The notes under the pieces: model-generated
Database searches by the model: none
Seen by the model: only the letters and a program-made list of their open reading frames with translations
Told to the model about the DNA's origin: nothing
Position numbers and translations under genes: made by a program
NCBI GenBank assembly: GCA_028698185.1
Contig: JAQVDW010000018.1
Span: 4,316 to 36,315, forward strand
Direction of reading: 5' to 3'
DNA: 32,000 nucleotides
Source of the DNA: Erysipelotrichaceae bacterium
Lineage (GTDB): Bacteria > Bacillota_I > Bacilli_A > Erysipelotrichales > Coprobacillaceae
Shown: one piece after another, positions 4,780-28,379 of the stretch
How positions within the stretch are numbered: position 1 is the stretch's first letter
Layout: the number at the start of each line of letters is the position of its first letter

Positions 4780-4786
4780 AAATGTA

Positions 4787-6840: not shown

Positions 6841-7107
6841 ATAACAAGTAGACTTATATTGAATATGATAACTTTTGTTTTAGGTGCTAAGAAAGAAGAA
6901 ACTTATCAGGAAAAATGAATGTTAACCTATTTGTTTAGGAAGGACTTGTCCTTGGAAGAACAATGCACTAGACCTATGATTATGTTAAAAGGGGGAATGT
7001 CGATGATTATTAGAGGATTTATCACTGGTTTACAAAGAATTTGTTTTAATGGCATTTCAATTAATCTTGGCCCTATAGGATTTAATTTTGCTAGTAGTTC
7101 TTCCTAA
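6841..7107 (+). pseudogene. Possible fossil of a second retron RT N-terminus (one in-frame TGA, truncated)
   Basis: The frame from 6841 reads ...VLGAKKEETYQEK*MLTYLFRKDLSLEEQCTRPMIMLKGGMSMIIRGFITGLQRICF... It aligns by eye to the intact RT segment KLTYMLY...KKSGGKRRINAPRGDLLDLQRQL. It is preceded by TAATGGGTGG (6829-6838), identical to the intact RT's SD region (4917-4926). Confidence 0.4.
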
Positions 7108-7209
7108 ATGAATAATAATGTTTGTATCTAATTTTGCAATCTAAACATCTTTTCGATATTTTCGTCAGTCAACGTACTCTGTTACTATCAAAATCAATAT
7201 TTTATTAAC

Positions 7210-7364
7210 TTAATACATTCCTGAATCGCCCAGATCGGCAGTTCTATTATGCACTAAATAATCGCATACTGGATGATCACTTGCTGCATCGTTCTGGATC
7301 AGTGCCAGGATCTCCAACGCTGATTTCAACGAAGTCACAAAGAAATATTCATTTTTTTGTCCAT
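7210..7364 (-). pseudogene. Small ORF with a strong ribosome binding site, interrupted at an A7 homopolymer
   Basis: GGAGGTGATAGC-ATG (7364-7362) gives MDKKMNISL* in frame. After the A7 run (7358-7352) the -1 frame stays open to 7210 (..NEYFFVTSLKSALEILALIQNDAASDHPVCDYLVHNRTADLGDSGMY*). Confidence 0.3.
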
Positions 7365-7516
7365 GCTATCACCTCCATTCAAAAGTACATACTTAGTGGG
7401 AGGTGATTTTACTTTTAATTTTATAAATACAAGGTATAAGTAATAAGATATATCTATATACATATTGGTCTAATGTGGTTAAAATGGAGTTAGATGATTA
7501 AAGAAAGGGAATTTAC

Positions 7517-8125
7517 ATGAAAGACACAGATAAAGCGTATTTTGAAATAGTTGATTTTTTACAAAATGCAGATTCGAAGTCATTGCTCTTAAAAGGTATC
7601 TCAGATGACGCGAAAGTCCAGTTGATGCTAAAATCCTTGCACGATGAAAAGCTACTAAGGGGTAGCGTTTATCTTATGCACATGAAAAAAGATGGGATTG
7701 AAAAGTTCTTTAGACCATTTAATATTCCTGGAAGGAAAAAAATCGCCCAATCAAAAACGTACGGTGAAGAAATTAGATTTAGTGATATGCAACTAAGATT
7801 CTATAAGCTAAAATCATATACAGATTTTCTGATTAATGAAGGACAAATGGATTCTTTTTCGATAGTTTGGCCGATTCAAAGCGCAGTAGGGAATAGAGAA
7901 GATATTGCTAATCTAAAAAAATATATTGGCAGTGCTGATGTGAAGAAAATAATTCTAATCACTTACAATGTGGTACTTCAAGATACAGAGGAGATTGAAT
8001 CGATTGTTGATAAGGTTATAAAACTAGATAAGGAAAACGATGATCCAAAGGTATATAATAGAAGAATTGAAACCGCAAAATACAATGATATTCGAAAAAC
8101 TGCATTATCGGGCGAAAGATGGTGA
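7517..8125 (+). CDS. Hypothetical protein (202 aa), no family recognised
   Basis: ORF track. AAAGGGA ribosome binding site 7 nt upstream of ATG 7517. AT-rich codon usage like the retron RT. The stop codon lies at the junction with the IS21 fragment. Confidence 0.55.
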   Translation: MKDTDKAYFEIVDFLQNADSKSLLLKGISDDAKVQLMLKSLHDEKLLRGSVYLMHMKKDGIEKFFRPFNIPGRKKIAQSKTYGEEIRFSDMQLRFYKLKSYTDFLINEGQMDSFSIVWPIQSAVGNREDIANLKKYIGSADVKKIILITYNVVLQDTEEIESIVDKVIKLDKENDDPKVYNRRIETAKYNDIRKTALSGERW

Positions 8126-8756
8126 CATGTTTCCGCGTTTATACCACGCAAATGATCAAATACGCTCATAGTCACGCCGTCCCAATCAACCATGACTTTG
8201 TCGCCTGGTTTGTGATGAATGTGCATCGTCAAATTGTTTTTCTTTACATAATCCTGGTACAATTCAAAGTAACGGGTTTGATGATAGAAAGGCAAAGATG
8301 CAGCGCGACATTGTTCCACATACTCACGCCACAATCCCCTAATGTATATTCCTGGTTTGAGTAACTCTTTATGGATGTAATCACAATCAGGCAAAATTTG
8401 GACTGGTAGATACTTTTCATCTGGAAAAAGCAACGAATTAATCTCGACATCATTCATACTTTGAAACTGAACCCATGTCAATCCGGTATTATCAGCAGCC
8501 TTGAAAATCCTGCTGACTGTATTACGGGATAAATGAAGCGATAAAGCAATGGCTCGTTGGCTCTCACCATAAAAACGTTTCTCAAGAATTTTCTTGATTT
8601 CTTGCATGAAAAAACACCTCCTTAGTAGATGCAAGGTAGATTGTTATCTACACTTCAATTCTACTCCTAAAGAGGTGGCTCTGTGAGTGAACATTTTATA
8701 TTTACAAAGTTGCTCTGTATGGTGAACACGGTGGCTCTCAACTAGCGGAATACTCA
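8126..8756 (-). mobile_element. Truncated IS21-family insertion sequence (left end plus the 5' third of istA only)
   Basis: Terminal region with repeated motifs GGTGGCTCT (8674-8682, 8730-8738) and GTGAACA. On the minus strand the outer end begins TGAGTATTCC... (8756 downward). No istB and no second end in the window. Confidence 0.65.
8143..8607 (-). pseudogene. istA: IS21-family transposase IstA, N-terminal fragment (about 155 aa of an expected ~400-500)
   Basis: MQEIKKILEKRFYGESQRAIALSLHLSRNTVSRI (HTH) ... HHKPGDKVMVDWDGVTMSVFD, typical of IstA. Similarity is lost near 8125-8145. AGGAGGTG ribosome binding site. Confidence 0.7.
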
Positions 8757-8840
8757 ATTATAATGGGGGCCTAAATGGGGGCCTTGGAAAAACATATCTA
8801 TGGAATAGTTGCTAAATAGTTAAAATATTTGTAGATAAAA

Positions 8841-8884
8841 CAAAAAAAGGTATTAAACACCTACAAAATAGTTGTTTAATACCT
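8841..8884 (-). terminator. Rho-independent terminator of rpsD
   Basis: Perfect 12-bp inverted repeat AGGTATTAAACA (8848-8859) / TGTTTAATACCT (8873-8884), followed on the minus strand by a U-run (plus-strand A-run 8842-8848). Confidence 0.8.
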
Positions 8885-8899
8885 AAATTTTTATGAGGT

Positions 8900-9505
8900 C
8901 TATCCCATTCTGTTGTAGTACTCAACGATTAATGATTCATTGATTTCTTGATTCAATTCTGATCTTTCAGGCAATCTAGTCAATTTACCTGTCAACTTAG
9001 CTGCATCAACTTCAACGAAAGCTGGTACATGAGTACGTCCTTCGATTGCTGCTTTGATTACTGCCATGTTTAAAGATTTTTCTCTAACTGCGATCACGTC
9101 ACCAACGTTTACTTTCATTGATGGGATGTCAGCTTTGATTCCGTTTAATGTGAAGTGTCCGTGGTTTACTAATTGTCTAGCCGCTCTTCTTGTTGAAGCG
9201 AATCCTAAACGGTAAACTACGTTATCCAAACGGCTTTCTAATAGGCAGAAGAAGTTGTAACCTGTGATTCCGTCCATTTTAGATGCTCTTTTGAATGTGT
9301 TGTGGAATTGTTTTTCGTTAACTCCATACATATGTCTCACTTTTTGCTTTTCAGCTAATTGTGCCCCATATTCAGTTTGTTTTTTTCTTTTTTGTCCGTG
9401 TTGCCCAGGAGCGTAAGGACGTTTGTTTAGTTCTTTACCGTTTTCTAAGGTAGAGAAACCTAAACGACGTGATAATTTCCATTGTGGTCCAGTATAACGT
9501 GCCAT
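8900..9505 (-). CDS. rpsD: 30S ribosomal protein S4
   Basis: [18 protein letters not shown]...[26 protein letters not shown]...[22 protein letters not shown] is collinear with Bacillus S4. ATG 9505 is preceded by GGAGGAAAAA. Confidence 0.95.
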
Positions 9506-9822
9506 TAATATTTTTCCTCCGTATATTGTTTTAGCAAGTAAAACAATAACCCGCATAGATTATCCAGGTTGTGTCCATATTAAGTATTTCTCCTTGCAGC
9601 AAGATACTCTACAAACGTTGGTTATGAACGCAATTACTGAAACTCCATGTGCTGCTATCATTTATTGCTTTTCAAGCATAACCGAATTGCCGGCCAAAGT
9701 CAAGAGAAAAACGGCGGAAATATCCCGATATTTTTAATGTTTTCCCATATTTGTTTTGGATCTTGGATATAATCGCGGGAATTTGGGAAAATATCGAATT
9801 TTAGCACCGCCGGGTCTTTTTG

Positions 9823-9851
9823 TTTCAAACGGGAGGCTTCTATGCTATAAT
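9823..9851 (+). promoter_or_regulatory. Candidate promoter of the DUF3783-pyrF-pyrE transcription unit
   Basis: TTTCAA (9823-9828), 17 nt, TGcTATAAT (hexamer 9846-9851). Confidence 0.45.
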
Positions 9852-9902
9852 CATTGTAAATATCGTGCAATTATGATATTCTAACTAATCGAGGTGAAAA
9901 AC

Positions 9903-10292
9903 ATGAAAGAATTGATCTTATTGGTAAATTTGGAAGGTACCCAGGATGGTATCGCCATCGGTTCGATCGCCCGCAATCTCGGGGTCGAAGTGAAGCATTT
10001 GAACGACACTGATTTCAACCAGGAAGTGGGATATCTGATCGGTTTGGAATCATACGAATTCGATGATGAAGCGGACGTTTCATCGCTTGAAGACAAGATG
10101 ATGGTACTCCACAACTTCTCGGATGAACAGATCGAATTGTTCCTGGATGTCTGCCGCCAGGCGGAAGTGTCTTACATCCCTTTAAAAGCGGTAACGACGC
10201 CGACAAACGTCCAATGGCGCTTTGTCGAGCTTTATAAAAATGTAAAAGCCGAATTCGAAGAAATGAAGCGGCTGCATGCAGGTCAAAATTAG
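9903..10292 (+). CDS. Small acidic protein, DUF3783-like
   Basis: ATG 9903 lies 6 nt after GAGGTG. The C-terminal block FSDEQIELFLDVCRQAEVSYIPLKAVTTPTNVQWRFVELYKNV resembles the DUF3783 consensus as I recall it. Confidence 0.55.
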   Translation: MKELILLVNLEGTQDGIAIGSIARNLGVEVKHLNDTDFNQEVGYLIGLESYEFDDEADVSSLEDKMMVLHNFSDEQIELFLDVCRQAEVSYIPLKAVTTPTNVQWRFVELYKNVKAEFEEMKRLHAGQN

Positions 10293-10301
10293 GAGGGGCG
10301 C

Positions 10302-11012
10302 ATGAATTCTAAAGTATGTATCGCATTGGATTTTGATTCGACTGCCAAGGTAGTTGAATTTTTGGACTCGTTTCCTGGCGGTGAAAAACTGCTGGTTAAA
10401 ATCGGGATGGAAGTCTTCTATGGTCAGGGGCTGGAAATCATCAAGACGGTCAAAAGCTATGGCCATGATATCTTCCTTGATTTGAAACTCTATGACATTC
10501 CCAACACTGTCAAATCGGCGATGAGCCAGCTGGCCAAACTCGATGTGGATATCGTCAATGTCCATGCCAGTGGATCGATCGCAATGATGAAAGCGGCGAT
10601 TGAAGGGCTCGAAGAAGGTAAAATCAAGGACAAAAGACCGCTGTGCATCGCGGTCACCTGTCTTACTTCGCTCTCGCAGGAAGTGCTGAACAAGGAATTG
10701 CTTATCGACAGGACGATCGATGAAACGGTGCTTCAGTTTGCCAAAAACGCCAAAGAAGCGGGATTGGACGGAGTAGTGTGCTCGCCTTTGGAATCGAAAC
10801 TGATCCATGACAATTTGGGATTGGATTTCTTGACAGTGACGCCAGGAGTCCGTCTTAAAGACGATTCCATCGATGATCAACAGCGCGTGACCACACCAAG
10901 TGACGCCCGGGTGTTGACATCAAGCTACATCGTGGTGGGCCGGCCGATAACCCGTGCCAAGGACCCATATGCCACATATAAAAAAATCGTAAGAGAATTC
11001 GAAGGGGAATAA
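10302..11012 (+). CDS. pyrF: Orotidine 5'-phosphate decarboxylase
   Basis: IALDFDS..., [13 protein letters not shown] (catalytic DxKxxD) and [16 protein letters not shown] ribosome binding site. Confidence 0.93.
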
Positions 11013-11647
11013 TGATGGAAAAATTAATCGCAACACACTTATTGGATATTCAAGCAGTATTTTTAAAACCGAACGATCCGTTCACTTGGGCCAGCGGAAT
11101 CAAATCGCCGATCTACTGCGACAACCGGCTGACACTGTCGTTTCCGAAAGTCCGCAAGGATATCGAGGCCGGTCTTGCCAAACTGATCAAAGAAAACTAT
11201 CCTGAAGCCGAATGTCTGATGGGTACTGCCACTGCGGGAATTCCGCATGCGGCATTGGTTGCCGACATCCTTGATTTGCCAATGGGCTACGTTCGGGGCG
11301 GGGCAAAAAGCCATGGCCGCAACAACCGCATTGAGGGAGTGGTGAAACCAGGAATGAAAGTTGTCGTGGTTGAGGATTTGATCTCGACCGGGGGATCTTC
11401 ACTTGAATGTGTCGAAGCCCTGAAAGAAGCCGGATGCGAAGTGCTTGGCCTGGTTGCCATCTTCACTTACGGTCTAGCCAAAGCTGAGGCCAACTTTGCC
11501 GCGGCGGAATGCTCATACCATACGCTGACAAATTATGATGCTTTAGTTGAGGTAGCTGTGGCTAAAGATTATATCGCTGAATCCGACAAAGAAAAACTGT
11601 TTGCTTGGAAAAAAGATCCTAGCGACCAGTCATGGATGGACAAATAG
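11012..11647 (+). CDS. pyrE: Orotate phosphoribosyltransferase
   Basis: [16 protein letters not shown] and the PRPP-binding loop [14 protein letters not shown]. The start overlaps the pyrF stop (TAATG). Confidence 0.93.
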
Positions 11648-11654
11648 GCAGTTT

Positions 11655-12512
11655 ATGAACAACGCCAAAATCCGTTTTGACACAGCTACAGTTTTGAAAG
11701 AGGCTTTTCAACCTTTGTTTTTGACTTTTCTGTTCATCCTGCTTATCAATCAGGGAATCAGCACGTTCGCTTCGATGTTTGGTCAAACGCTATCGCAGAT
11801 TCTTACGCTTTTAGCCACTGTGGCGACCTTGCCTTTAGCCCAGGGCCAGGTAAAAGCGGCATTGAAGGCGGTCAACAACCAGATCGATGCCATCGATCCC
11901 AAAGACGATGGGCTGGCGGGATTTAGTCATTACCGCCGCTATTTCTCGACCTATTTTGTGGTCTTCATGATCACTTTGATGAGTGTTTTGATGATTGTCC
12001 TGGTGGGAGTCGTTCTGGTGCTTGCCACCCAGGGTGATGTGCTTTCGGGCCTGGGTGATTATTATCTGACATTCACCGATGTCAACGCCCTGGTTTTGGC
12101 GATGCAAAGTGATGCGGCACTGATGAGTGCGATCTACTCGACACTGGGAATCGTGCTGGCCATCCTTGGGGTCATCGGGCTTGTCTATCTGTTTATCTAC
12201 AGCCATATCGCACTGGCCCCCTTCATCCTTGAAAAGTATGACTATCGGGGACTTAAGGCGGTGACCACCAGCGCCAAATACATGAAGGGCAGGAAATGGG
12301 ACCTGGTCAAACTGATGGTTTCCTTTTTGCCCCATGCCTTGCTGGGGGTGGTGGCGATGAGTGTCATCGACAGCTTCGTTTCCAATATGGTTTTGGCCTC
12401 GCTTCTTTCGAGCATTGTCTTCATCGCTGTCTTGAATGTCCGTTTCAAGGTAGCCCTGGCTTACTTCTTCGAAGAAGCGGACATCGCCTACGAAGGACAG
12501 ACCCATGACTGA
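11655..12512 (+). CDS. Polytopic membrane protein, possibly DUF975-like
   Basis: ATG 11655 (MNNAKIRFDTATVLKEAF...). At least 5 hydrophobic helices. The KYMKGRKWDLVKLMVSFLPHALLGV block is reminiscent of DUF975. The family call is tentative. Confidence 0.55.
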   Translation: MNNAKIRFDTATVLKEAFQPLFLTFLFILLINQGISTFASMFGQTLSQILTLLATVATLPLAQGQVKAALKAVNNQIDAIDPKDDGLAGFSHYRRYFSTYFVVFMITLMSVLMIVLVGVVLVLATQGDVLSGLGDYYLTFTDVNALVLAMQSDAALMSAIYSTLGIVLAILGVIGLVYLFIYSHIALAPFILEKYDYRGLKAVTTSAKYMKGRKWDLVKLMVSFLPHALLGVVAMSVIDSFVSNMVLASLLSSIVFIAVLNVRFKVALAYFFEEADIAYEGQTHD

Positions 12513-13251
12513 CAGGCGGCTGCTTGATGATTCACTGCTAACTGGCAAGCTGACTTGGAATATGGTGGCCTATGGTTATCTTACCGGTGGGGCGATGTAT
12601 TTTTTCTCGGCTCCGCTGATCGGCCAGTATCTCGCGGTCTTGCTGGTGGGCCATTACGGCAGCTACAGTTTGCTTTTGGGCGTGTTGAACCTGCTGTTCC
12701 AGGCGATCATGCTTGTGACCATGGTTGCCATTTTGAAGGATTTCATCATCGAGAGTGTCCGCCACTTTTCAAAAGGGTGGAAAACCGAGCTGCTCTGGGG
12801 ATTTAGTGTCGGCTTTCCGATGATGTTTATCACCAACTCCTTGCTGGGTGGCCTGGTGACCCTGTTCATCTCGAACGAGAGTGCCAATGAGGCGGCGATA
12901 ACCCAGCAGGCCCAGAGCAATTTCGCCTTGATTGCGGTGACCACAATCATTCTGGCACCTGTGGTCGAGGAACTTTTCTTCCGGGGGATTATTTTCCGTT
13001 CTTTTTCGCGGTACAATGTCGTCCTGGGGATGGTTGTCTCGTCGCTGTTTTTTGGCTTCGTCCATATCTACCAGGCCTTGCTGGCGGGCGATGTCTCGCA
13101 GCTTTATTACCTGATCCAATATGGCGGGATGGGCCTGGTGCTTGCCTGGGTGTACGTCATCCGGCGCAATATTCTGAGTGCAATCTTCGTCCATCTGCTC
13201 AACAACGCCATCTCGATGGTCATATTGTGGATATCGTTTGGATTGTTGTGA
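12505..13251 (+). CDS. CPBP-family intramembrane glutamic endopeptidase (CAAX protease/Abi domain)
   Basis: Motifs APVVEELFFRG (EExxxR), FGFVHIY and FVHLLNNA. Overlaps the upstream gene by 8 nt. Confidence 0.85.
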   Translation: MTDRRLLDDSLLTGKLTWNMVAYGYLTGGAMYFFSAPLIGQYLAVLLVGHYGSYSLLLGVLNLLFQAIMLVTMVAILKDFIIESVRHFSKGWKTELLWGFSVGFPMMFITNSLLGGLVTLFISNESANEAAITQQAQSNFALIAVTTIILAPVVEELFFRGIIFRSFSRYNVVLGMVVSSLFFGFVHIYQALLAGDVSQLYYLIQYGGMGLVLAWVYVIRRNILSAIFVHLLNNAISMVILWISFGLL

Positions 13252-13262
13252 TAAATAAACTG

Positions 13263-13293
13263 GGAGTCTAATCCATTAGGCTTCCGTTTTTTT
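13263..13293 (+). terminator. Rho-independent terminator after the CPBP gene
   Basis: GGAGTCTAAT / ATTAGGCTTCC imperfect stem followed by GTTTTTTT. Confidence 0.6.
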
Positions 13294-13361
13294 GTTCTAT
13301 GACTGTAAATAGGTGAATAATTGTGATAGAATGAATGAAATATCGTGCCCGGGGGAATCGT

Positions 13362-14831
13362 ATGCAACTAGAACCAATCAAACAAACATCATATCTGACC
13401 GCTTTGAACGCTCATCTTTATCGCAGGATCATGCGGATTGTCTATCTTGAGTCGACCCACTACAACTACCATCTCGATCTTGAAAAGATAATGGAAAAAC
13501 TGGAAAACGACGAGTTCGAGGGCGCAATCGATGAGCCGGCCGTAAAAAACGCTCTTGACGCCCTGGTGGACTGGGGCAATCTTACCGCCATCCAGGATGC
13601 CAAGCAGGTCAACACGATTGCCGAATTCAAGGCTCGCAAGTTCCGTTATTCGATCAGTGATATCGCCCTGGAGGTCGAACGGATGGTGATGAAAATCGAG
13701 AACCTGACCGTGAAAAGCAACAGCGCCTCGCTAGGCTACCTCAAGCGGCTGTACCAGGAATTCAAAAAGATTCTCACTCTGAGTGACGCAAGTGAAATGC
13801 AGCTTCTGGAGTGGTGGGAGTATGTCGGGAATGATTTTGCGACCTTGAACCTGGTTTATAGCGACTACCTCCGTGATTTTTCCGGTGCCAAGTCGCAAAA
13901 GCTGATGCAGTCACTTGAATTTTTGCAACACAAGGAGTACTTCGTCAGGATGCTCAAGGATTTCGTGACCCAGCTGCAGATTTATGCCATTGAGTTCGAG
14001 AAGATTCTGATAAGTCTTGACCCTAATTACGTCACCAGTCTCCTTGAGCGGATCGTAACCGCCCAGAAGAAGAATCCTTCTTCGCTTGGTGCTCTTGAAT
14101 ACACCGATGAAAAGTACCTGAGGGATGGGGTCTTTGGCCGTTACAGCGAGCTGCAAAGGTGGTTTGTCAAACTGCCGGGAAGCCCGAGCGAAGTTGAACA
14201 GATCATGGATCGCACCAACGTCATTATCCGCCAGATCATCCAGAATGCGGGGCTGATCATCGACTTCCATGAGGGCATAATATCCAAGAAGGATGATTAC
14301 CGCCATTACCTGAAACTTTTTGGCCGGATATCCGATCTTGGTGAGGCCCATAAGCTGGCGGCCCATCTTTTCGGGGTCCATGATATCCGTCATTACCAGA
14401 CCAATGCGCCAAGACTGAGTGAAAGCAGTGCGATTTCGACCTTCGCCGAGGCACCTCAGGTTTTCGAAGTCAAACCGATGACCCGCAAATACCGGATCAA
14501 GCAGGAAAAAATCACCCTGGTGGACCGGTCACTCGAAAAGCAGCTGCAGATCCAGGCGCATCAGGCGATGATTGCCAGCCAGATCAAGATCGCCAACACC
14601 TACATCAAAGCCAAACGGATCGACTTCAAGGATATCGTCGATGAGATATCGCCCGCGACCCGGTTGTTGCTGCTTTCGTGGGTTGCCAGTGCCAACGGCA
14701 CAATCGACAAGGTCGGTACAAGCGAGTTTGGCCGACGCTTCAAACTAATGAAAATGGATGAGACCATCACATTGCGCTGCAGTGACGGCGACTTGCAGAT
14801 GCCCCGGTTCATCCTGGAATTCGAGGATTAA
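13362..14831 (+). CDS. jetA: Wadjet JetA-like subunit (DUF2397/TIGR02677-type, kleisin-like)
   Basis: First gene of a 4-gene operon with TIGR02677/78/80/79 order and sizes (489 aa). The N-terminus SYLTALNAHLYRRIMRIVY fits the family start as I recall it. ATG 13362 follows GGGGGA. Confidence 0.7.
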   Translation: MQLEPIKQTSYLTALNAHLYRRIMRIVYLESTHYNYHLDLEKIMEKLENDEFEGAIDEPAVKNALDALVDWGNLTAIQDAKQVNTIAEFKARKFRYSISDIALEVERMVMKIENLTVKSNSASLGYLKRLYQEFKKILTLSDASEMQLLEWWEYVGNDFATLNLVYSDYLRDFSGAKSQKLMQSLEFLQHKEYFVRMLKDFVTQLQIYAIEFEKILISLDPNYVTSLLERIVTAQKKNPSSLGALEYTDEKYLRDGVFGRYSELQRWFVKLPGSPSEVEQIMDRTNVIIRQIIQNAGLIIDFHEGIISKKDDYRHYLKLFGRISDLGEAHKLAAHLFGVHDIRHYQTNAPRLSESSAISTFAEAPQVFEVKPMTRKYRIKQEKITLVDRSLEKQLQIQAHQAMIASQIKIANTYIKAKRIDFKDIVDEISPATRLLLLSWVASANGTIDKVGTSEFGRRFKLMKMDETITLRCSDGDLQMPRFILEFED

Positions 14832-14832
14832 G

Positions 14833-15942
14833 ATGATACCTAAAGAACTGCTTGAAAACTTCTGGGTCCTTAAAAGCGACGACCCCAAGAAGTTCTATCA
14901 GTTGAAAAGAGAACTGAAACAGTCGCAAAGCTTCATCAACAACCAGATCGGATGGAAAGTCATCGCCAATGACAATCTTCTCAAGATTGAAAAGACACCT
15001 TATCGGGCTTCGGGCTATATGGGAATCACGGATTTCAACGATGTTGACGACTACCTTTTCCTGGTGGCCACCCTGATCTTCCTCGAGGACAAGGGGGTGC
15101 ACGAGCAGTTTTTGCTTTCGCAGTATATTGAAGGGATTGAAGTGATTTTGGGTGACCTGATCGAGCTGGACTGGACGAGCTATTCGCGGCGCCGGACTTT
15201 GATCAGGGTTATGGAATACTGTCTCAACCTGGCCCTGCTTAAGGTCACCGACGGTTCGCTGGAAGGCTTCAAAAGCGGCGGCGAGGGCGAGGTGCTCTAT
15301 GAGAACACGGGACTTTCGAAGTATTACCCGGTCAGCTTCAATTTCGATGTCACCAAGATTGAAGGGGTCGATGATCTGGTTGTGGTGTTGAATGATTCAA
15401 CCGACACCGTGCGCAATAGCGTCTATCAACAGCTGATCACCAGCCCGGGGGTGACCTGGAGCTCGAGTGAGGATGTCTTTGGCAAATATCTCAAGAACCA
15501 GCGGTTCAACATCCAGAAAAACATCGACCGCTTTCTTTCTGGTGAGTTGATGGTATTCAAGAACTCGGCCTACTTGATGGTCTCCAGTGATGATAAATAT
15601 GGGACCCTCCATCCCAGCGGCAAATCGATAAGTTCGCTGGTGCTGTTTGTCCAGAAGCGGATCGTCGAGATGTGCAACAATGGCGAATTGAAGCTCTTGG
15701 TTGAGGATGTGATCGAGATGGGTGCCGGCGATTTTGGCAAGCTTGTTGTGGGCGTATACAATCAGGTTCTGCCGGGATTGTCGAGCGAGTACCGCAATAT
15801 GGACATAAACAATGTGATCAAGGCGGTAGTCGCCTATATGGAGGGCTTCCATCTGATCGAACTAGATGGAGCAAAGATAATAATACAAGGGGCAGTGGCC
15901 CGCCATGAGGGAAGTTACCCTTATGATTTTGTGGAGGAATAG
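14833..15942 (+). CDS. jetB: Wadjet JetB-like subunit (DUF2398/TIGR02678-type)
   Basis: 369 aa. The start lies 1 nt after the jetA stop. Position and size fit the family. No motif can be verified by eye. Confidence 0.65.
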   Translation: MIPKELLENFWVLKSDDPKKFYQLKRELKQSQSFINNQIGWKVIANDNLLKIEKTPYRASGYMGITDFNDVDDYLFLVATLIFLEDKGVHEQFLLSQYIEGIEVILGDLIELDWTSYSRRRTLIRVMEYCLNLALLKVTDGSLEGFKSGGEGEVLYENTGLSKYYPVSFNFDVTKIEGVDDLVVVLNDSTDTVRNSVYQQLITSPGVTWSSSEDVFGKYLKNQRFNIQKNIDRFLSGELMVFKNSAYLMVSSDDKYGTLHPSGKSISSLVLFVQKRIVEMCNNGELKLLVEDVIEMGAGDFGKLVVGVYNQVLPGLSSEYRNMDINNVIKAVVAYMEGFHLIELDGAKIIIQGAVARHEGSYPYDFVEE

Positions 15943-18900
15943 ATGAAAGAAAGATGGCAGATGCATCGGATGGGACTGGTGAATTTCTGGTATTTCGACG
16001 ACCAGGAGTTCGAGTTTGCCAATGGCAAGCTTTTGATCCGGGGCCAGAACGGTTCGGGAAAATCGATATCGACCCAATCCTTCATTCCGTTCATATTGGA
16101 TGGAAACAAGGCGCCTTACAGGCTGGATCCCTTTGGGTCCAAGGACCGGCGCATGGAATATTATTTCCTGCTTGACGGCAAGAATGATGAATCGGCCGGC
16201 TATATCTGGCTTGAATTCAAGAAAACCGGTTCAGAGCAGTACCGCACCCTGGTAATCGGACAGCGGGCCCGCAAGAACAGCGACATGCAGTTCTGGAGCG
16301 GGATAATTCTTGACAACCGGCGGATCAACCGAGATTTTCAGCTAAAAAAACGGCTTGGCGACTCTTGGCAGATTCTCACCAAACAGGAGTTCAAAAACGC
16401 GCTTGGGGATAGCAACTTCTACTCCGAGCGGGCGGTGGAGTACAAGGCGGCGGTCAACAAGCATGTTTTCGGGTTCGACCAGCTTGACCAGTACGACCAG
16501 TTCGTGGACCTGCTTATCAAGGTGCGGGCTCCAAAGCTTTCCAAGGAATTCAAACCGACCAAGATCTACGAGATCTACAATGAAAGTCTCCAGGTTTTAA
16601 GCGATAGTGATATCCTGCCGATGGTCGAATCGATGGAAGAAATCGACCGGACCCAGGCCAAGCTCGATGAATTCCAGGCGACCAAAAAGGCGCTTGACAA
16701 TGTCGGTCGCGTCTACAATCTCTACAATCGCTATTACCTGGGGAAAAAGGCGCAAAACTACACCCGTTATCGCGACGAGTTCGATGACCTTTCCAGCCGG
16801 CTCAAAGACGGTCAGGACCGGTTTGAAGCCAATCAGGAAGCGCTAATAGATATCGCTAAAAGAACCGATGAGCTAAACGGGGCCAATGCCCTGTTGCAAA
16901 CCGAAAGGGCTGCGCTCCCGCTTGATGACATCGAAGCCAAGATTGAAAGCTACAAACAGGCAAAAGGGGAAAAGCAGGCTCAGGTCCAGGAACTAAAGGC
17001 CCATCAAGGCAAGCTGGATGCCGCCTTGGCGGAAAAGGATGTCAAAATCACCCAGCGGCGCCAGCTTGAACAGGATGGCAGCGACTGCGAGTATCGGGTT
17101 TTTAAAGGGATCAAAGAACTTGATGCGATCAACGAAATCGCAAAGCTGCCAGGCCACGAAAAGATCCGCCGAATGGAAAGTCAACGTGATCTTCTGGGAC
17201 ACTGTGATGAGCTTGAAGGGGAATTGAACAAAGTTTCCAAGCGGGTCGACCAGGTTCTTGTCTGTCTTGACCGGCGCCATCAAGAACAACTCCGGCGCGA
17301 CGAGCTTGCGCAAAACCTCGGCCTGGTCAATGAACAGATTGCCAACTGCAACAGTCTTCTTGATGGCAAGACCCGGGAGATTGAAAACGTAAGGGACGAA
17401 CTGATCAACGGATTCTATCGTTTCGCGCAGGGAAGTCCCGCCCTCGATATCACAAGCAGGCTTAATGATCTGGCCAATATCATCAGGGAATACCAGGGCT
17501 ATGGCGATTTTAGAATGATTGACCGGATTTTGATCGAGCTCAAAAGCGACCAGGCGCTGACTTTGAACAAGTCGATAATGGAGACACGCTTCGCCTTGGA
17601 CAACTACCGGAAGGACCGGGATCTGCTTAACCGGGAACTCATCGCCCTGATCCAAACACAGGATCTGACATTTCCGGTCTCCGAGCTGGTTGGCCAAGGG
17701 CGCAGGATCCTTGCGGATAACGGAATTGATTTTATCAGTGTCTATCAGGCCTTGGAATTCGACGAGTCGCTTACGGAAAAACAGAAGAACATAATGGAAG
17801 CCCAGCTGGTGGCAACCAATCTCATCGATGCCATCATCGTCAATTACGAAAACTATGAAAAGGCCCGGGAGCTTTTAAGGGGCAGCGACCAGGTCCTGGT
17901 GGCTCTTGAAAGTCAGGAGGGGACGGGGACGTTCTTTGTCAAGGGGGACCATCCCCGGTTTGAGCGGGAAATCGATGATTTCATCGCGATGTTCGCTTCC
18001 AAAGGCCGCTTCGAACCTGACGGCCATTACCGCCATGGGCTGATGGAAGGTTTCGTTTCCGACAAAAAAGAAAGTCTCTATGTGGGTGAAAAGTCGCGCA
18101 AGGCCAACCGGCTAAGGCAGATCGCTTCGATCGAAGCCAGTATGGCAAAGCTCGAGGAACTTGTGGAATCGACGACCCAGGAAATAAAAAGGCTAGAACA
18201 GATTGGAGCGCAGCTTGAGGAAGACTATGCCAGCCTCCAGGTTTTTGCCGACCTCGACCGGCTGCTCGAAGAGCTTGACGCGCTTGAAGTCCAGCTGGTC
18301 CAGGCGACCCAAAAACAACAGGAGCTTTCAAATCAGGTGGAGCAAGTCAAGGCCCGGCTGGTAAAAATCAAGAACGAATTGCTTGGAGCGGCCAGCGATC
18401 TGCCATACCATCTGGAAAGTGCCATCTATCAGGATGTCAGGGAAAGTCTAAAAGACTATCAGACCACCTTGAACCAGATCCACCGCGAATTGCTGCTCTG
18501 GGGAACCAAGAACACCCAGGTGCAAACGATCGGCGAGGTGATTGACAAGATTGGGGAACAGGTTGATGAATACTACGATTTGACCCGCCAGCTGGAAAGC
18601 CGGATTGCCAAGAACACCACCATCATCGCGACCATCGAGAATTACCTGAATCAAGAGTCAACCAAAGAGCTCCATGGGCGGGTCAGAAAAATCGACGAAG
18701 CGCTGGAAGCCAATGGGATTGAAATTGAAAAACTTGACAGCCAGCGGCAACATTACCGGGAAGCGAATCTCCTGCTTGAACGGGATATCGCCCTGATGGC
18801 CAGCCAGTTGGAAAAAGCGAAGGCTTATCTTGATCTTTCAAGAGAACTTTTTGTCCAGGAACTCGATCTAGGATATGTTCAAGGAATCATGGGCAATATC

Positions 18901-19953
18901 GATGAACAGGCCAAAAAAGCGGGCAGTCTGCTCCAGCCAAATGAAGCGCAAAAGGGCGAGAATGAGCTGTTGCAATCGTTGAACGACGCCCAGCGCAACA
19001 ACTTCTCGGCTTTGACCAATTATGGCATCGCCACGGTTGAGCTGTTCAAAGCCAATGAATCCAACCTGATTTCCCTGCGTTATGCGATCATGCTCAAGTA
19101 CCAGAACAAGACGGTCGATTTCTTCGAATTTTACGATAAGATCACCGAAACGATCGAGAACACCCAGCTGCTCATAGTGGAAAAGGACAAGGAACTATTC
19201 GAGAAGTTCTTCTCCGACGCCCTGGCCAACAAGCTGATCCGCAAGATCAACGACGCGAAAAGCTGGGTCAAGGACATGAGCGAGCTTATGGAGAATCTCA
19301 AGACGACATCGGCCATCTCGTTTTCACTGGCATGGAAGCCCAAAGCGGCTCTTTCCAGCGATGATCTCGCGACGCTAGAACTCGTCAGGCTGCTTGAAAG
19401 CGACCGGGAGATCCTGAGCTACGAGAATCTTAACGCCCTCTCGCAACATTTTTCCAAACGGATCAAGATGGCCAAACAGGAATATCTTGAAAACGACATC
19501 CAGGAGTTCAACTACGGTGACCTGGTCCGCCAGGCCCTGGATTATCGGGAATGGTTCGAATTCTGCCTTTACTACAGACGGTCCGGAGCTGTCAAGAAGG
19601 AACTGACCAATTCGGCCTTCAATGTCCTTTCCGGGGGCGAGAAGGCGATGGCGATGTATGTGCCGCTGTTCACCGCGGTCAATGCCCAGTACAAGAAATC
19701 CGCGAAACCGGACTTCCCGCGCATCATCGCCCTTGATGAAGCCTTTGCCGGAGTCGACAGCGAGAATATCTCGTCGATGTTCGATCTGGTGGAGAAACTG
19801 GATTTCGATTTCATCATGAACTCGCAGGTGCTCTGGGGCACTGATGGCGCAGTCAAGGAGCTGGCGATATCCGAACTGTACCGGCCGCTCAATTCCCAGG
19901 TTGTATCGACCATAAATTACCATTGGAACGGAAAGGTGAAGACGCTGTTATGA
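15943..19953 (+). CDS. jetC: Wadjet JetC, SMC-like ABC ATPase (TIGR02680-type)
   Basis: 1336 aa. RMGLVNFWYFDDQEFEFANGKLLIRGQNGSGKS (Walker A at nt 16042-16065). About 900 aa of heptad-rich coiled coil. C-terminal signature LSGGEKAMAM and Walker B RIIALDEAFAGVD. The ATG directly follows the jetB TAG, with a GGAGGA ribosome binding site. Confidence 0.9.
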   Translation: MKERWQMHRMGLVNFWYFDDQEFEFANGKLLIRGQNGSGKSISTQSFIPFILDGNKAPYRLDPFGSKDRRMEYYFLLDGKNDESAGYIWLEFKKTGSEQYRTLVIGQRARKNSDMQFWSGIILDNRRINRDFQLKKRLGDSWQILTKQEFKNALGDSNFYSERAVEYKAAVNKHVFGFDQLDQYDQFVDLLIKVRAPKLSKEFKPTKIYEIYNESLQVLSDSDILPMVESMEEIDRTQAKLDEFQATKKALDNVGRVYNLYNRYYLGKKAQNYTRYRDEFDDLSSRLKDGQDRFEANQEALIDIAKRTDELNGANALLQTERAALPLDDIEAKIESYKQAKGEKQAQVQELKAHQGKLDAALAEKDVKITQRRQLEQDGSDCEYRVFKGIKELDAINEIAKLPGHEKIRRMESQRDLLGHCDELEGELNKVSKRVDQVLVCLDRRHQEQLRRDELAQNLGLVNEQIANCNSLLDGKTREIENVRDELINGFYRFAQGSPALDITSRLNDLANIIREYQGYGDFRMIDRILIELKSDQALTLNKSIMETRFALDNYRKDRDLLNRELIALIQTQDLTFPVSELVGQGRRILADNGIDFISVYQALEFDESLTEKQKNIMEAQLVATNLIDAIIVNYENYEKARELLRGSDQVLVALESQEGTGTFFVKGDHPRFEREIDDFIAMFASKGRFEPDGHYRHGLMEGFVSDKKESLYVGEKSRKANRLRQIASIEASMAKLEELVESTTQEIKRLEQIGAQLEEDYASLQVFADLDRLLEELDALEVQLVQATQKQQELSNQVEQVKARLVKIKNELLGAASDLPYHLESAIYQDVRESLKDYQTTLNQIHRELLLWGTKNTQVQTIGEVIDKIGEQVDEYYDLTRQLESRIAKNTTIIATIENYLNQESTKELHGRVRKIDEALEANGIEIEKLDSQRQHYREANLLLERDIALMASQLEKAKAYLDLSRELFVQELDLGYVQGIMGNIDEQAKKAGSLLQPNEAQKGENELLQSLNDAQRNNFSALTNYGIATVELFKANESNLISLRYAIMLKYQNKTVDFFEFYDKITETIENTQLLIVEKDKELFEKFFSDALANKLIRKINDAKSWVKDMSELMENLKTTSAISFSLAWKPKAALSSDDLATLELVRLLESDREILSYENLNALSQHFSKRIKMAKQEYLENDIQEFNYGDLVRQALDYREWFEFCLYYRRSGAVKKELTNSAFNVLSGGEKAMAMYVPLFTAVNAQYKKSAKPDFPRIIALDEAFAGVDSENISSMFDLVEKLDFDFIMNSQVLWGTDGAVKELAISELYRPLNSQVVSTINYHWNGKVKTLL

Positions 19954-21230
19954 TCGAAGAGTGCGTAGCCTACTTCAAGGCGAAGCCGGAATTCGACCGG
20001 GTCTTCAAACTCATGAAAAAGCAGTGGGAGAAATACGGGCGGGCAGCCGGCTACATAATTCTCAAAGACCCGACTGCCAAAGAAAAGGAGGTCCTGGGCA
20101 AGTTTTTGCACCAGGATTATGGCTATCCCGCCGATCTGGCCAAGATCAGATTCAAGATGGTCTCCTTCCAGGAAGCACTGGAAATAACCAGGTTCAAAAA
20201 CCTCGATATCAAGGATATCCTTGACGCCTACTTCCGGATGGAAATATCGACGACCGGACACAAACGGATGGTCGCTCAAAAAAAGCAGGCTGATTTATTC
20301 GAGGCGCTGTCAAAACGGGTAAGCCACCCGTTGGTGGCAGATTGGTTCGATTGGCTGCGCCAATCCAGAACCAGTGGCTATATGTTGTTCAAGTCATGGG
20401 TCAAGGATGATGAAGATTCCGCCTGCCAGGCGATACAAGCGATCGACAGTGCGGTTGGCTGTCTTGATCGAAGTGCGTTTCCCTTGGCGGTTCTAGGGGC
20501 CCAGGTGACGGGCAATCCCCACTATTTCGACCGCAACACCAAGCCGGGGCGGCTGCTTATCAGCTGTTTGGGACATATCCATGGCGTCACAACCCCGAGT
20601 CACGCCCAGGGGATTTTGGAGCTGTATGTCCTGGCCAAAATAACCCCGGATGACATCTCGTCGAGTGTGGTCATCAAGAACATCGACCTTTTTCAAGGGG
20701 ACAAGATCCATCAAGGTGTTGCCGGATTCAATGAATTGAACGAGCCTTGTGTGGTGACTTTGGGCAACCTGGCGAACGTCAGTCATGCTTCAAGCAAGCC
20801 CTGTGTGTTTGTGTTTGAAAACCAGATGGTCTTTTCATATCTGGCCAGCGAGCGACTCGATAACTGCTCCCTGGTGTGCACTTCGGGCCAGCTCAAGGTT
20901 GCGGCACTGAAGCTTTTCGAAATGCTCGACAGGAAAGTCAGGATCTTTTACAGTGGCGATTTCGATCCCGAGGGCCTGCAAATAGCCGACAAGCTATTGG
21001 GCCGTTTTCCCAATGTGACGCCGTGGGGGTTTAGTGAGGAGCTTTACTTCAAGGCGCTTTCAAGCGAGCCAATCAGCGATGTCCGCCTGAGCAAACTCGA
21101 TTCCCTGGCCGACTCGCGCCTTAAACAATTGGGCAAGTCAATCAAGGACCATAAGTTGGCCGGTTACCAGGAAAACATCCTCGATTTCTACCGTGAGGAC
21201 ATCGTCAAAAAAATGATGGAAAACAAGTGA
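19950..21230 (+). CDS. jetD: Wadjet JetD-like Toprim nuclease subunit (DUF3323+DUF2399/TIGR02679-type)
   Basis: ATGA overlap with the jetC stop. The C-terminal Toprim motifs are VFVFENQMVF (Glu) and IFYSGDFDPEGLQIADKL (DxD). 426 aa. Confidence 0.8.
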   Translation: MIEECVAYFKAKPEFDRVFKLMKKQWEKYGRAAGYIILKDPTAKEKEVLGKFLHQDYGYPADLAKIRFKMVSFQEALEITRFKNLDIKDILDAYFRMEISTTGHKRMVAQKKQADLFEALSKRVSHPLVADWFDWLRQSRTSGYMLFKSWVKDDEDSACQAIQAIDSAVGCLDRSAFPLAVLGAQVTGNPHYFDRNTKPGRLLISCLGHIHGVTTPSHAQGILELYVLAKITPDDISSSVVIKNIDLFQGDKIHQGVAGFNELNEPCVVTLGNLANVSHASSKPCVFVFENQMVFSYLASERLDNCSLVCTSGQLKVAALKLFEMLDRKVRIFYSGDFDPEGLQIADKLLGRFPNVTPWGFSEELYFKALSSEPISDVRLSKLDSLADSRLKQLGKSIKDHKLAGYQENILDFYREDIVKKMMENK

Positions 21231-21274
21231 TGACCACCAGGCCAGACAAGGCAGGGTGGTCATCATCTTTTTTC
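21229..21274 (+). terminator. Rho-independent terminator of the jet operon
   Basis: GATGACCACC / GGTGGTCATC 10-bp stem followed by ATCTTTTTT. Confidence 0.8.
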
Positions 21275-21416
21275 GAATCCGGTGACCGGGTCCCGAGACC
21301 GAAAAGCCTGTGAAATTGAATGAATTGTGTCAATTCCACCTGTTAGGTGCTATAATCTAATTAGCGACAGGCAGACGGGAATGCGATTGCAACCAGCAAT
21401 AAAAGGAGATGGATTT

Positions 21417-21875
21417 ATGGCGTACATCATGGAGATTGTCGAAACTTCGAAGCAGCCCGTTCTTGCGGTAAGGACAACGACTGCGGTTGAAAATCTGCCC
21501 AATATCGTCGGTCCGATCTACGATGAGATAGTGGGCTACATCATGGCAAATAAGCAGGAACCTCTGGGTCCGGCTTTTATCGCCTATTACAACATGGATA
21601 TGGAAAATCTCGACATCAAAATCGGCTTTCCGGTGGCCACAGCCCTGCCAGGCAACGACCGGATCGAGGCGGGTTTCATTCCGGCCGGGAAAAAGGCCAC
21701 AACTTTCCACAAGGGATCTTATGGTGATGTCGGGGCGGCATACCAGGCTTTAAGCGAATACCTGGTCAAAGCCGGATACGAGGCGACCGGAGTGGCTTAT
21801 GAATATTACTACAATTCGCCTGGGGAAGTGCCTGACAGCGAATTGTTGACTAAGATCGAACTTTTGCTTAGATAA
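21417..21875 (+). CDS. GyrI-like (AraC effector-binding / SOUL-type) small-molecule-binding domain protein
   Basis: MAYIMEIVETSKQPVLAVRTTTAVENLP...GFPVA...IPAGKKATTFHKGSYGDVGAAYQALSEYL...YEYYYNSPGEVPDSELLTKIELLL is typical GyrI-like architecture. AAAGGAGA ribosome binding site. Confidence 0.75.
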   Translation: MAYIMEIVETSKQPVLAVRTTTAVENLPNIVGPIYDEIVGYIMANKQEPLGPAFIAYYNMDMENLDIKIGFPVATALPGNDRIEAGFIPAGKKATTFHKGSYGDVGAAYQALSEYLVKAGYEATGVAYEYYYNSPGEVPDSELLTKIELLLR

Positions 21876-22687: not shown

Positions 22688-22764
22688 TGGCGGTCTGGAC
22701 GGGACTCGAACCCGCGACCTCCGCCGTGACAGGGCGGCATTCTAACCAACTGAACTACCAGACC
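22688..22764 (-). tRNA. tRNA-Asp (GUC)
   Basis: The reverse complement folds as a cloverleaf: GGTCTGG acceptor, anticodon loop CTGTCAC, T-loop TTCGAGT, encoded CCA. Near-identical to Bacillus tRNA-Asp. Confidence 0.95.
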
Positions 22765-22772
22765 GTAAAAAA

Positions 22773-22863
22773 TGGCGGAGACAGAGAGATTTGAACTCTC
22801 GCGCCAGTTACCCGACCTACGCCCTTAGCAGGGGCGCCTCTTCAGCCTCTTGAGTATGTCTCC
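22773..22863 (-). tRNA. tRNA-Ser (GCU)
   Basis: GGAGACA/TGTCTCC acceptor stem, anticodon loop CTGCTAA, long variable arm, T-loop TTCAAAT, encoded CCA. Confidence 0.93.
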
Positions 22864-22882
22864 AGGTTTTTACTGCTTTTAC

Positions 22883-22911
22883 ATGATAGCATTTATTTAC
22901 ATGTGTTGCAA
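22883..22911 (-). promoter_or_regulatory. Candidate internal promoter ahead of tRNA-Ser
   Basis: Minus strand reads TTGCAA (22911-22906), 17 nt, TATCAT (22888-22883), about 20 nt upstream of the tRNA-Ser 5' end. Confidence 0.45.
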
Positions 22912-22958
22912 TACTTTTTTTCACTTTTTTCAAACACTGTCCAATGTTTAGAAAAAAA

Positions 22959-23034
22959 TGGTCTCCCCGCACGGGCTCGAACCGTGGACCCTCTGATTAA
23001 GAGTCAGATGCTCTACCAACTGAGCTACGGAGAG
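22959..23034 (-). tRNA. tRNA-Lys (CUU)
   Basis: Cloverleaf with D-arm GCTCAGTTGGTAGAGC, anticodon loop CTCTTAA, T-arm CACGGTTCGAGCCCGTG and encoded CCA. Acceptor stem CTCTCCG/CGGGGAG (C1:G72). Confidence 0.9.
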
Positions 23035-25096: not shown

Positions 25097-25118
25097 TAAT
25101 TTGAAAGAGAGGATTATT

Positions 25119-26918
25119 ATGAGAGCAGTAATGGTTATGTTCGATTCACTGAATCGCCACATGCTTCCGAATTATGGTTGCGACTGGATCAAGGCGCCCA
25201 ATTTCAAGCGGCTCGCTAAAAAAACGGTCAGCTTCGACAATTGTTATGCGGGCAGTCTGCCCTGCATGCCAGCTCGAAGGGAGCTCCATACCGGACGGTA
25301 CAACTTCTTGCATCGTTCCTGGGGACCGGTGGAACCGTTTGACGATTCGATGCCCGAATTGTTGAAAAGAAACGGAATCTACACCCACCTGGTTTCCGAC
25401 CACCAGCATTATTGGGAAGATGGGGGATGCACCTATCATACCCGCTACAGTTCCTGGGAAATCAGCCGGGGCCAGGAGGGTGACCCCTGGAAAGGCCGCG
25501 CCAATTATCGAAGCAAAGAGGATTCGCCGTTTTTCTGGAGCAAGATGGCAAAAAACGCGCCCGGCCAGAATATCCTGAAGCAAGACGAGATCAACCGGAC
25601 CTATCTCCAGGATGAAAAGGACATGCCCCAGGCGGTGACCTTCAAGAACGGAATCGACTTCATCAATGCGAACCACGACCAGGACAACTGGTTTTTGCAG
25701 ATCGAGACTTTTGATCCCCATGAACCGTTCTTCGCTCCGGCGCGTTTTCAGGAATTGTATCCCGACGACTATGACGGGATCGAATTTGACTGGCCGCCCT
25801 ACGGTCCGGTGATGGAAGACGACAGGACCGTGGCCCATGGCAAGAACCGATACAGCGCCCTGGTTAGCATGTGCGACCATTACCTGGGAAAGGTCCTCGA
25901 TTTGATGGACGAGCACAACCTGTGGGAGAATACGATGCTTATCGTCAATACTGACCATGGCTATCTTTTAGGGGAACATGGCTGGTGGTCGAAATCGGTG
26001 ATGCCAACCTACAACGAGATCGCCCATATCCCATTTTTCATCTACGATCCCCGTTTGAAAATCGCCGGGGAAAAGCGTCAGGCGCTGGTGCAGACAATCG
26101 ACATCGCGCCAACCCTGCTGGATTTTTTCAAGGTGGCGATACCAGAGGCGATGGAAGGACGGCCGCTCAAGGACACGGTAGCATCTGACAAGAAGATCCG
26201 CGATCACGCGATGTTCGGGTACCATGGCAGCCACGTCAACATCACCGACGGCCACCATGTCTATATGCGCTCGCCGGTAAGCAATTTCAACCGGCCCCTT
26301 TACGAATACACCCTGATGCCTACCCATATGAGATCGATGTTCGCCCCTGAAGAACTTGGCGAAATCGAGATCGCCGGACCATTCGGGTTTTCCAACAAGG
26401 CCAAGATGATGCGCATCGAAGTCAAGGCGGAAAGCTTCAACAAGCCAGCCTTCTTTGGTTCCAAGCTGTTCGATATCGACAGCGATCCCGACCAGTTGAG
26501 CGAGATCGAAAATGAGGATGTCGAGTTGGCGATGATCGAGGCCATCCGCCAAAAGATGATAATCAACGAAGCTCCCGATGAGCAATATGTCCGCCTGGGC
26601 ATTGTAAAAGACCGGCCGCTGACACGGGGAGAACTCAGGATCCAGAAAGAACAGACAATCAATGAACGAAAAGTTGCCGGTCTGGAATCGTTCGAGTTCC
26701 AACATGGCAGTTTCAACATGGTTACCTGCCTGTTGAACCTGCTGGAACCGTCAAAAAGGGCAGGCCTTGTCGCCGATTTCAAAGTCCAGTTGGCCAACAA
26801 AAAAACTAAAACTGTCAAGGACAGGGATGTATACGAACTCCTTGGCAATATGGAACTTACCAATGATCAGTATGCGATGTATAAATATTTTGTGAGTGTT
26901 GCGAGTCGTACTAAATAA
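25119..26918 (+). CDS. Cys-type sulfatase (alkaline-phosphatase superfamily), no signal peptide
   Basis: SLPCMPARRELHTGRY matches the C-x-P-x-R...TG formylglycine motif (Cys codon 25263-25265). VNTDHG metal/active-site block. ATG 25119 follows GAGAGG. Confidence 0.88.
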   Translation: MRAVMVMFDSLNRHMLPNYGCDWIKAPNFKRLAKKTVSFDNCYAGSLPCMPARRELHTGRYNFLHRSWGPVEPFDDSMPELLKRNGIYTHLVSDHQHYWEDGGCTYHTRYSSWEISRGQEGDPWKGRANYRSKEDSPFFWSKMAKNAPGQNILKQDEINRTYLQDEKDMPQAVTFKNGIDFINANHDQDNWFLQIETFDPHEPFFAPARFQELYPDDYDGIEFDWPPYGPVMEDDRTVAHGKNRYSALVSMCDHYLGKVLDLMDEHNLWENTMLIVNTDHGYLLGEHGWWSKSVMPTYNEIAHIPFFIYDPRLKIAGEKRQALVQTIDIAPTLLDFFKVAIPEAMEGRPLKDTVASDKKIRDHAMFGYHGSHVNITDGHHVYMRSPVSNFNRPLYEYTLMPTHMRSMFAPEELGEIEIAGPFGFSNKAKMMRIEVKAESFNKPAFFGSKLFDIDSDPDQLSEIENEDVELAMIEAIRQKMIINEAPDEQYVRLGIVKDRPLTRGELRIQKEQTINERKVAGLESFEFQHGSFNMVTCLLNLLEPSKRAGLVADFKVQLANKKTKTVKDRDVYELLGNMELTNDQYAMYKYFVSVASRTK

Positions 26919-26930
26919 GGAGAGATAACG

Positions 26931-28340: not shown

Positions 28341-28379
28341 TTCATTTCCATAGATAAATGTGATACAATTGATACGGTG

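Follow-up and report, generated by a model that had tools for sequence, protein, structure and literature searches.

A probable type II Wadjet operon, jetABCD, on the chromosome of an uncultured Coprobacillaceae bacterium

We analysed a stretch of 32,000 nucleotides from an Erysipelotrichaceae bacterium (hereafter the window; contig JAQVDW010000018.1 of assembly GCA_028698185.1, positions 4,316 to 36,315 of the forward strand). Four plus-strand genes at window positions 13362-21230, arranged jetA-jetB-jetC-jetD as read directly from the sequence, very probably form a complete and functional type II Wadjet (JetABCD, JET-II) operon on the chromosome of an uncultured member of the Coprobacillaceae (Erysipelotrichales). 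This assignment draws on the gene content, the subtype, the intact catalytic motifs, the fold of JetD, the conserved synteny and the purifying selection obtained in this analysis.

Gene content, subtype and catalytic motifs

An earlier reading made from the letters of the window (the sequence-only reading) had proposed a type II Wadjet and had named two findings that would speak against it, namely a failure of the DUF2397, DUF2398 and DUF2399 models to match, and classification of the cluster as a MukBEF/MksBEF condensin without a Toprim partner. We ran both checks using Pfam, NCBIfam and PADLOC profiles on the four proteins: all three families were matched, and jetD, the gene for the Toprim partner, is present and intact. 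The type II PADLOC model was the best for each of the four proteins (JetA2, 2.2e-130; JetB2, 1.3e-103; JetC2, E = 0 with 1159 bits over residues 1-1335; JetD2, 4.9e-122), and models of types I and III were weaker by many orders of magnitude (best matches JetC1 4.6e-20, JetD1 1.3e-07 and JetD3 2.1e-05). With Pfam, scores were far above the gathering scores for DUF2397 on JetA (335.4 bits, 7.8e-100), DUF2398 on JetB (218.4 bits, 2e-64) and DUF3323 and DUF2399 on JetD (126.5 and 83.3 bits), and likewise for SbcC_Walker_B on JetC. The NCBIfam families TIGR02677, TIGR02678, TIGR02680 and TIGR02679 matched the four proteins over their full length, TIGR02677 on JetA (200.4 bits, cut-off 165.85) and TIGR02680 on JetC (639.7 bits, cut-off 462.85) exceeding their curated cut-offs. 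A literature search on TIGR02680 returned nothing relevant.

As a reference we used the type II Wadjet of Neobacillus vireti LMG 21834 (nvJET-II; PDB 9QE0/9QE1, cryo-electron microscopy), the sole type II Wadjet in the PDB. A sequence search of the PDB aligned residues 3-1335 of JetC to 9qe0_A (3.8e-142), residues 4-488 of JetA to 9qe0_E (1.7e-45) and residues 6-366 of JetB to positions 20-382 of nvJetB (9qe0_D, 4.7e-46). The two lobes of nvJetB comprise residues 5-205 and 206-388 (bioRxiv 10.1101/2025.03.10.642339) and, because the alignment covers both, JetB is predicted to be a tandem KITE protein as well. By sequence, its size of 369 aa fits that class, type II JetB being an enlarged tandem KITE of about 370-390 aa with four winged-helix domains. 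Both halves of the JetC head align with nvJetC, with the Walker A, ABC signature and Walker B/D-loop motifs intact, and the N-terminal Walker A, C-terminal signature and Walker B that the sequence-only reading had described were all recovered (GQNGSGKS at aa 34-41, LSGGEKAMAM and IIALDEAFAGVD); they align motif for motif with GTNGSGKS, FSGGEKAMAM and IISLDEAFAGVD of nvJetC. At 1336 aa, JetC falls within the large type II SMC size class (about 1340-1370 aa).

JetD carries the two Toprim motifs already picked out before any search, FENQ (E290) and GDFDPEG (D337 and D339). In an alignment of 44 homologues drawn from 617 matches, mostly from gut Bacillota and Fusobacterium, residues E290, N291, G336, D337, D339, P340 and G342 were invariant, and these include the Toprim Glu and DxD. 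Because the PDB sequence search was empty for this protein, we used structure prediction and Foldseek. The AlphaFold2 model (predicted local distance difference test score, pLDDT, of 93.1) had as its best PDB matches MksG of C. glutamicum (8b7f, 9e-08), topoisomerase VI-A (1d3y, 7e-07), JetD of P. aeruginosa (7til, 1.8e-06) and Spo11 (8urq, 5.5e-04). Given the invariant Toprim residues, the confident model and these matches, JetD is predicted to be the CAP-like + Toprim nuclease subunit that the Wadjet family requires.

The genes are tightly packed (Table 1). One nucleotide separates the TAA of jetA (14829-14831) from the ATG of jetB (14833), the TAG of jetB (15940-15942) directly abuts the ATG of jetC (15943), and the stop codon of jetC overlaps the start codon of jetD in an ATGA (19950-19953), an arrangement that points to translational coupling at all three junctions. 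These coordinates, junctions and protein sizes (489, 369, 1336 and 426 aa) came out on direct reading as they had been given before. Independent gene calls on the identical metagenome contig agree with all four. Longer starts in the list of open reading frames (jetA at 13335, jetB at 14758, jetD at a TTG at 19923) were rejected in favour of shorter ones, because Shine-Dalgarno-like sequences (GGGGGA, 5 nt upstream of the jetA start; GAGGA for jetB; AAGGTGA for jetD), the independent gene calls and the alignment starts of homologues all agree on the latter.

Table 1. Coordinates of the jet genes and of the signals flanking them, in window positions.
Feature	Position	Strand	Length	Landmarks	Description
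jetA	13362..14831	+	489 aa	ATG 13362, TAA 14829-14831	kleisin subunit, DUF2397 / TIGR02677
jetB	14833..15942	+	369 aa	ATG 14833, TAG 15940-15942	tandem-KITE subunit (predicted), DUF2398 / TIGR02678
jetC	15943..19953	+	1336 aa	ATG 15943, TGA 19951-19953	SMC-type ABC ATPase, long coiled coil, TIGR02680
jetD	19950..21230	+	426 aa	ATG 19950	CAP-like + Toprim nuclease (predicted), DUF3323 + DUF2399 / TIGR02679
Upstream intrinsic terminator	13261..13293	+		hairpin 13261-13286 + T-run	belongs to upstream CAAX-protease gene
Downstream intrinsic terminator	21227..21274	+		hairpin 21227-21266, then CTTTTTT	stem overlaps jetD stop codon
Candidate extended -10 element	13324..13332	+		TGaTAGAAT	30 nt upstream of jetA ATG; read by eye

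Genomic site, selection and alternative readings

The jet operon lies among housekeeping-type genes, being preceded by rpsD, a DUF3783 gene, pyrF, pyrE, a DUF975 gene and a CAAX protease gene, and followed by a GyrI-like gene, a HAD hydrolase gene and a tRNA-Asp/Ser/Lys cluster. A scan of GTDB genomes that used pyrE as an anchor placed the window beside a Coprobacillaceae metagenome-assembled genome (MAG) whose 2.88-Mb chromosome is complete (OY776328.1, locus L003; pyrE 96% identical), with which window positions 8837-21623 are collinear at 83% nucleotide identity. The jetABCD genes occupy the same site in L003 and in a contig from ENA (L083), a more distant jet homologue (L084) lies in another neighbourhood, and gene order is the same in all three. 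No jet genes were found within 10 kb of pyrE in other Coprobacillaceae genera (Stoquefichus, Faecalibacillus, Massilimicrobiota, Thomasclavelia and others). Among these relatives no clean empty site or insertion scar could be defined, because downstream of pyrE the gene order is no longer conserved and the DUF975 and CAAX matches are distant (just 27-38% identical).

The 4 kb or so on each side of the operon contain no transposase or integrase. The earlier statement that no mobile-element genes are adjacent therefore stands at this local scale and not further out, a retron reverse transcriptase island lying 6.8 kb upstream. The composition of the jet genes (GC 0.49-0.52; GC at third codon positions, GC3, 0.66) agrees with that of the flanking genes (GC 0.45-0.52, GC3 0.51-0.71), and thus with the host, as had been proposed. 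When a plasmid collection was searched with JetC, the only matches were distant (<=35% identity), on megaplasmids and annotated as TIGR02680 family protein, and we saw no sign that the operon might be plasmid-borne. The three orthologous copies (window, L003 and L083) have no internal stops or frameshifts, and in each gene the ratio of nonsynonymous to synonymous divergence (dN/dS) lies far below 1 (0.08-0.19 against L003, 0.10-0.14 against L083). The operon is under purifying selection and is a long-resident, selected part of the chromosome and no recent island.

The four proteins have diverged to different extents. Identities for JetA, JetB, JetC and JetD are 91, 90, 83 and 80% against L003 and 82, 73, 68 and 63% against L083, so that divergence climbs along the operon (A<B<C<D) and is much larger in L083 than in L003, two loci about equally far from the window in a housekeeping gene (pyrE, 96-97% identical in both). 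Synonymous divergence (dS) of jetB-D against L083 is 1.7-2.1, above the 0.8-1.4 of the flanking genes and near saturation, and within the neighbourhood the genes evolving fastest are those of JetC and JetD. It is possible, though we hold it rather doubtful, that the locus is a fixed-site arena of diversifying evolution, through homologous recombination replacing alleles or an arms race in which anti-Wadjet factors of plasmids target JetC/JetD, and not the product of simple vertical drift; dS being near saturation, conflict-driven evolution and allele exchange are not separable here.

Several points weigh against a complete and functional type II Wadjet. TIGR02678 on JetB scored 88.0 bits (7e-25), below its curated equivalog cut-off of 124.65, and TIGR02679 on JetD scored 161.7 bits (3e-47), below its cut-off of 196; of the TIGR02677/78/80/79 cluster named in the sequence-only reading, all four families were thus matched, two of them under their cut-offs. 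By phmmer JetD had no match at all in the PDB, and no type II JetD structure has been solved. Upstream of jetA, no sigma-70-like promoter emerged from a consensus scan. JetC is just moderately similar to nvJetC, so that details, the size limit and the metal preference among them, may not be the same. Finally, the sequence comes solely from metagenome contigs and MAGs, the host being uncultured, and we infer the function of this copy, including its expression, its assembly, its restriction of plasmids and its metal dependence.

A silent or crippled copy, whose genes look intact yet are unexpressed or are inactivated outside the motifs examined, would fit the scan that gave no strong promoter, the two TIGRFAM scores under their cut-offs and the fact that expression and activity are here predicted from the genes. 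We consider it very unlikely, since three orthologous copies are free of frameshifts and stops, dN/dS is low in each of the four genes, the catalytic motifs are all conserved and the Pfam and PADLOC scores are high and full-length. A domesticated chromosomal condensin, fixed at a housekeeping locus beside pyrFE and mainly organising or segregating the chromosome in the manner of MksBEF/MukBEF after losing plasmid restriction, would in turn account for the same non-island site in three lineages, the host-like composition and the lack of adjacent mobile genes; the resting-state geometry and hinge of type II Wadjet are moreover MukBEF-like, and the authors of that work speculate that Wadjet also extrudes chromosomal loops and that condensins arise when the nuclease is lost (bioRxiv 10.1101/2025.03.10.642339). 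Nuclease loss is, however, what would be expected of domesticated condensins (bioRxiv 10.1101/2025.03.10.642339), whereas JetD is full-length, translationally coupled, invariant in its catalytic residues and under purifying selection (dN/dS 0.14-0.19), and JetC and JetD evolve fastest locally, as expected of a conflict system. Because its Toprim partner is present and intact, the operon does not encode a nuclease-less MksBEF/MukBEF condensin, and we see little chance that it is a domesticated one. Another SMC or Rad50-like system that merely resembles Wadjet (Lamassu LmuB, SbcCD/Rad50-type repair or MADS), to which weak secondary JetC matches could point (LmuB 3.5e-07, mad3 2.4e-10, Rad50 and archaeal SMC-related models), is effectively refuted, as these matches cover just the ABC head and are weaker than JetC2 by hundreds of orders of magnitude, and the partners are JetA2, JetB2 and JetD2 and not LmuA/LmuC or SbcD.

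Flanking signals, retron island and other neighbouring features

Intrinsic terminators had been placed on both sides of the type II Wadjet operon (13263-13293 and 21229-21274), and folding identified both as real hairpins followed by T-runs. The upstream one was detected by a terminator scan (11 pairs followed by TTTTTTT), with a folding energy of -13.6 kcal/mol (z -3.7); it belongs to the CAAX-protease gene and insulates the 5' side of the jet operon. The downstream one was missed by the simple scan because its stem is interrupted and its loop is long, and folds at -28.3 kcal/mol (z -6.3), with none of 200 shuffled sequences equally stable. Weak terminator-like matches inside the operon (e.g. 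15904-15925) lie within coding sequence and were taken as chance. The TGaTAGAAT sequence listed in Table 1 may be an extended -10 promoter element; the consensus scan did not report it because it has no good -35 hexamer.

Upstream of the operon, between a DUF362/Fe-S gene and rpsD, lies a low-GC island (4052-8900; GC 31-36% against about 50% around it). It contains a gene for a 573-aa reverse transcriptase (4876-6597, plus strand), which PADLOC matched best to its models for single-gene retrons of type I-C RT-Toprim (9e-229), and this retron is a second defence system in the window. Neither an inverted-repeat search nor an Rfam search with permissive settings gave a recognisable msr/msd RNA in the island, and the open reading frames beside the reverse transcriptase gene (7517-8125, plus strand; 7978-8634, minus strand) had no family matches. 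The corresponding region of OY776328.1 (window 4052-8837 compared with L003 1-7828) has no retron upstream of rpsD and carries instead IS200/IS605 tnpA and tnpB genes, a Mutator transposase fragment and a SocA/Panacea antitoxin-like gene. The shared part is limited to window 6557-6740 and L003 7366-7542 (76% identity), and the spot upstream of rpsD is a variable hotspot. The adjoining rpsD gene (8900-9556, minus strand) has a GC of 0.38 and a GC3 of 0.30, compared with a GC3 of 0.51-0.71 in its neighbours, and despite this low GC its protein is 98% identical to the copy in the sister genome. Loci of family relatives have a GC of 27-30% and those of this lineage 44-50%; the GC of the host clade may have risen, rpsD either lagging in this change or having another codon bias.

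Downstream, the tRNA-Asp(GTC), tRNA-Ser(GCT) and tRNA-Lys(CTT) genes (22688-23034, minus strand) lie 1.5 kb from jetD with no integrase nearby, and a search of the whole window with Rfam gave these three tRNAs and nothing else. Further on, between a long HAD-domain gene and a DUF1576 gene, a block of sulfatase, MFS transporter and LacI regulator genes (25101-29408) is absent from L083, where the HAD-domain and DUF1576 genes adjoin. This block is probably a small carbohydrate-utilisation insertion.

Proposed mechanism and comparison with known systems

By homology to the reconstituted N. vireti system, a motor unit would consist of two copies of the SMC ATPase JetC with one each of the kleisin JetA and the tandem-KITE protein JetB, and two such units would dimerise via the N-terminal winged helix of JetA. 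The JetABC complex would load onto DNA and extrude loops with ATP. On small circular DNA extrusion would run to completion, and the stalled motors would offer bent DNA to a JetD dimer, whose Toprim site (E290, D337 and D339; probably Mn2+-dependent) would cut both strands without sequence specificity. The plasmid thus linearised would then be degraded, and the large chromosome and linear DNA would be spared. The sequence-only reading had given cleavage of small circular DNA as the function of such systems, in agreement with the biochemistry of nvJET-II, which cuts circular and not linear DNA at random positions in a Mn2+-, ATP- and JetD-dependent manner (bioRxiv 10.1101/2025.03.10.642339).

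Type II Wadjet is already known structurally and biochemically; what is new here is the host lineage, and we found no deviating feature. The organism would be predicted to resist small circular plasmids, which is relevant to any attempt at genetic tractability: in Clostridium cellulovorans, deletion of jetABCD increased the uptake of a conjugative plasmid about 10^5-fold (PMC12287153). The alleles at the three syntenic loci, in which JetC and JetD diverge faster than the other subunits, offer a small natural data set that could help to show which surfaces of Wadjet are shaped by conflict. The practical value is modest, and no new mechanistic question is opened.

Compared with known systems, the operon is most readily set beside nvJET-II, an A1B1C2 motor unit dimerised via its kleisin, with a tandem KITE and a channel-less hinge (Roisné-Hamelin, Liu and Gruber, bioRxiv 10.1101/2025.03.10.642339). 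Both have the same four genes, the same PADLOC subtype and near-identical ATPase motifs, and the proteins align end to end at similar sizes (JetC 1371, JetA 500 and JetB 389 aa in nvJET-II; 1336, 489 and 369 aa here). Sequence similarity is moderate, the activity was characterised there whereas we describe genes alone, and the host of nvJET-II belongs to the Bacillales, whereas the present one is an uncultured lineage of the Erysipelotrichales/Coprobacillaceae known from metagenomes and MAGs.

Type I Wadjet/MksBEFG (JetABCD of E. coli GF4-3 and P. aeruginosa PA14; MksBEFG of C. glutamicum) likewise combines a kleisin, a KITE protein, an SMC protein and a Toprim nuclease, MksG (8b7f) and JetD (7til) are among the best matches of the JetD model, and the extrusion-cleavage principle is reported to be common to both types (bioRxiv 10.1101/2025.03.10.642339). 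Its PADLOC models match the present proteins weakly (4.6e-20 for JetC1 and 1.3e-07 for JetD1, against E = 0 and 4.9e-122 for the type II models), and type I differs in that its JetB has a single KITE (~240 aa) and works as a homodimer, its SMC is shorter, its hinge is channelled, the N-terminus of its aCAP is of another kind and Mn2+ is not required (bioRxiv 10.1101/2025.03.10.642339). The MukBEF and MksBEF condensins share the SMC-kleisin-KITE motor, and type II Wadjet resembles MukBEF in its resting-state geometry and hinge (bioRxiv 10.1101/2025.03.10.642339), but they are without the Toprim nuclease gene that is present, coupled and conserved here. Topoisomerase VI subunit A and Spo11, finally, share with the JetD model the CAP-like + Toprim fold (1d3y and 8urq) and the acidic Toprim residues. 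The CAP domain of JetD is without the catalytic tyrosine according to the JetD literature (bioRxiv 10.1101/2025.03.10.642339), and JetD would act not as a topoisomerase but as a hydrolytic nuclease activated by JetABC.

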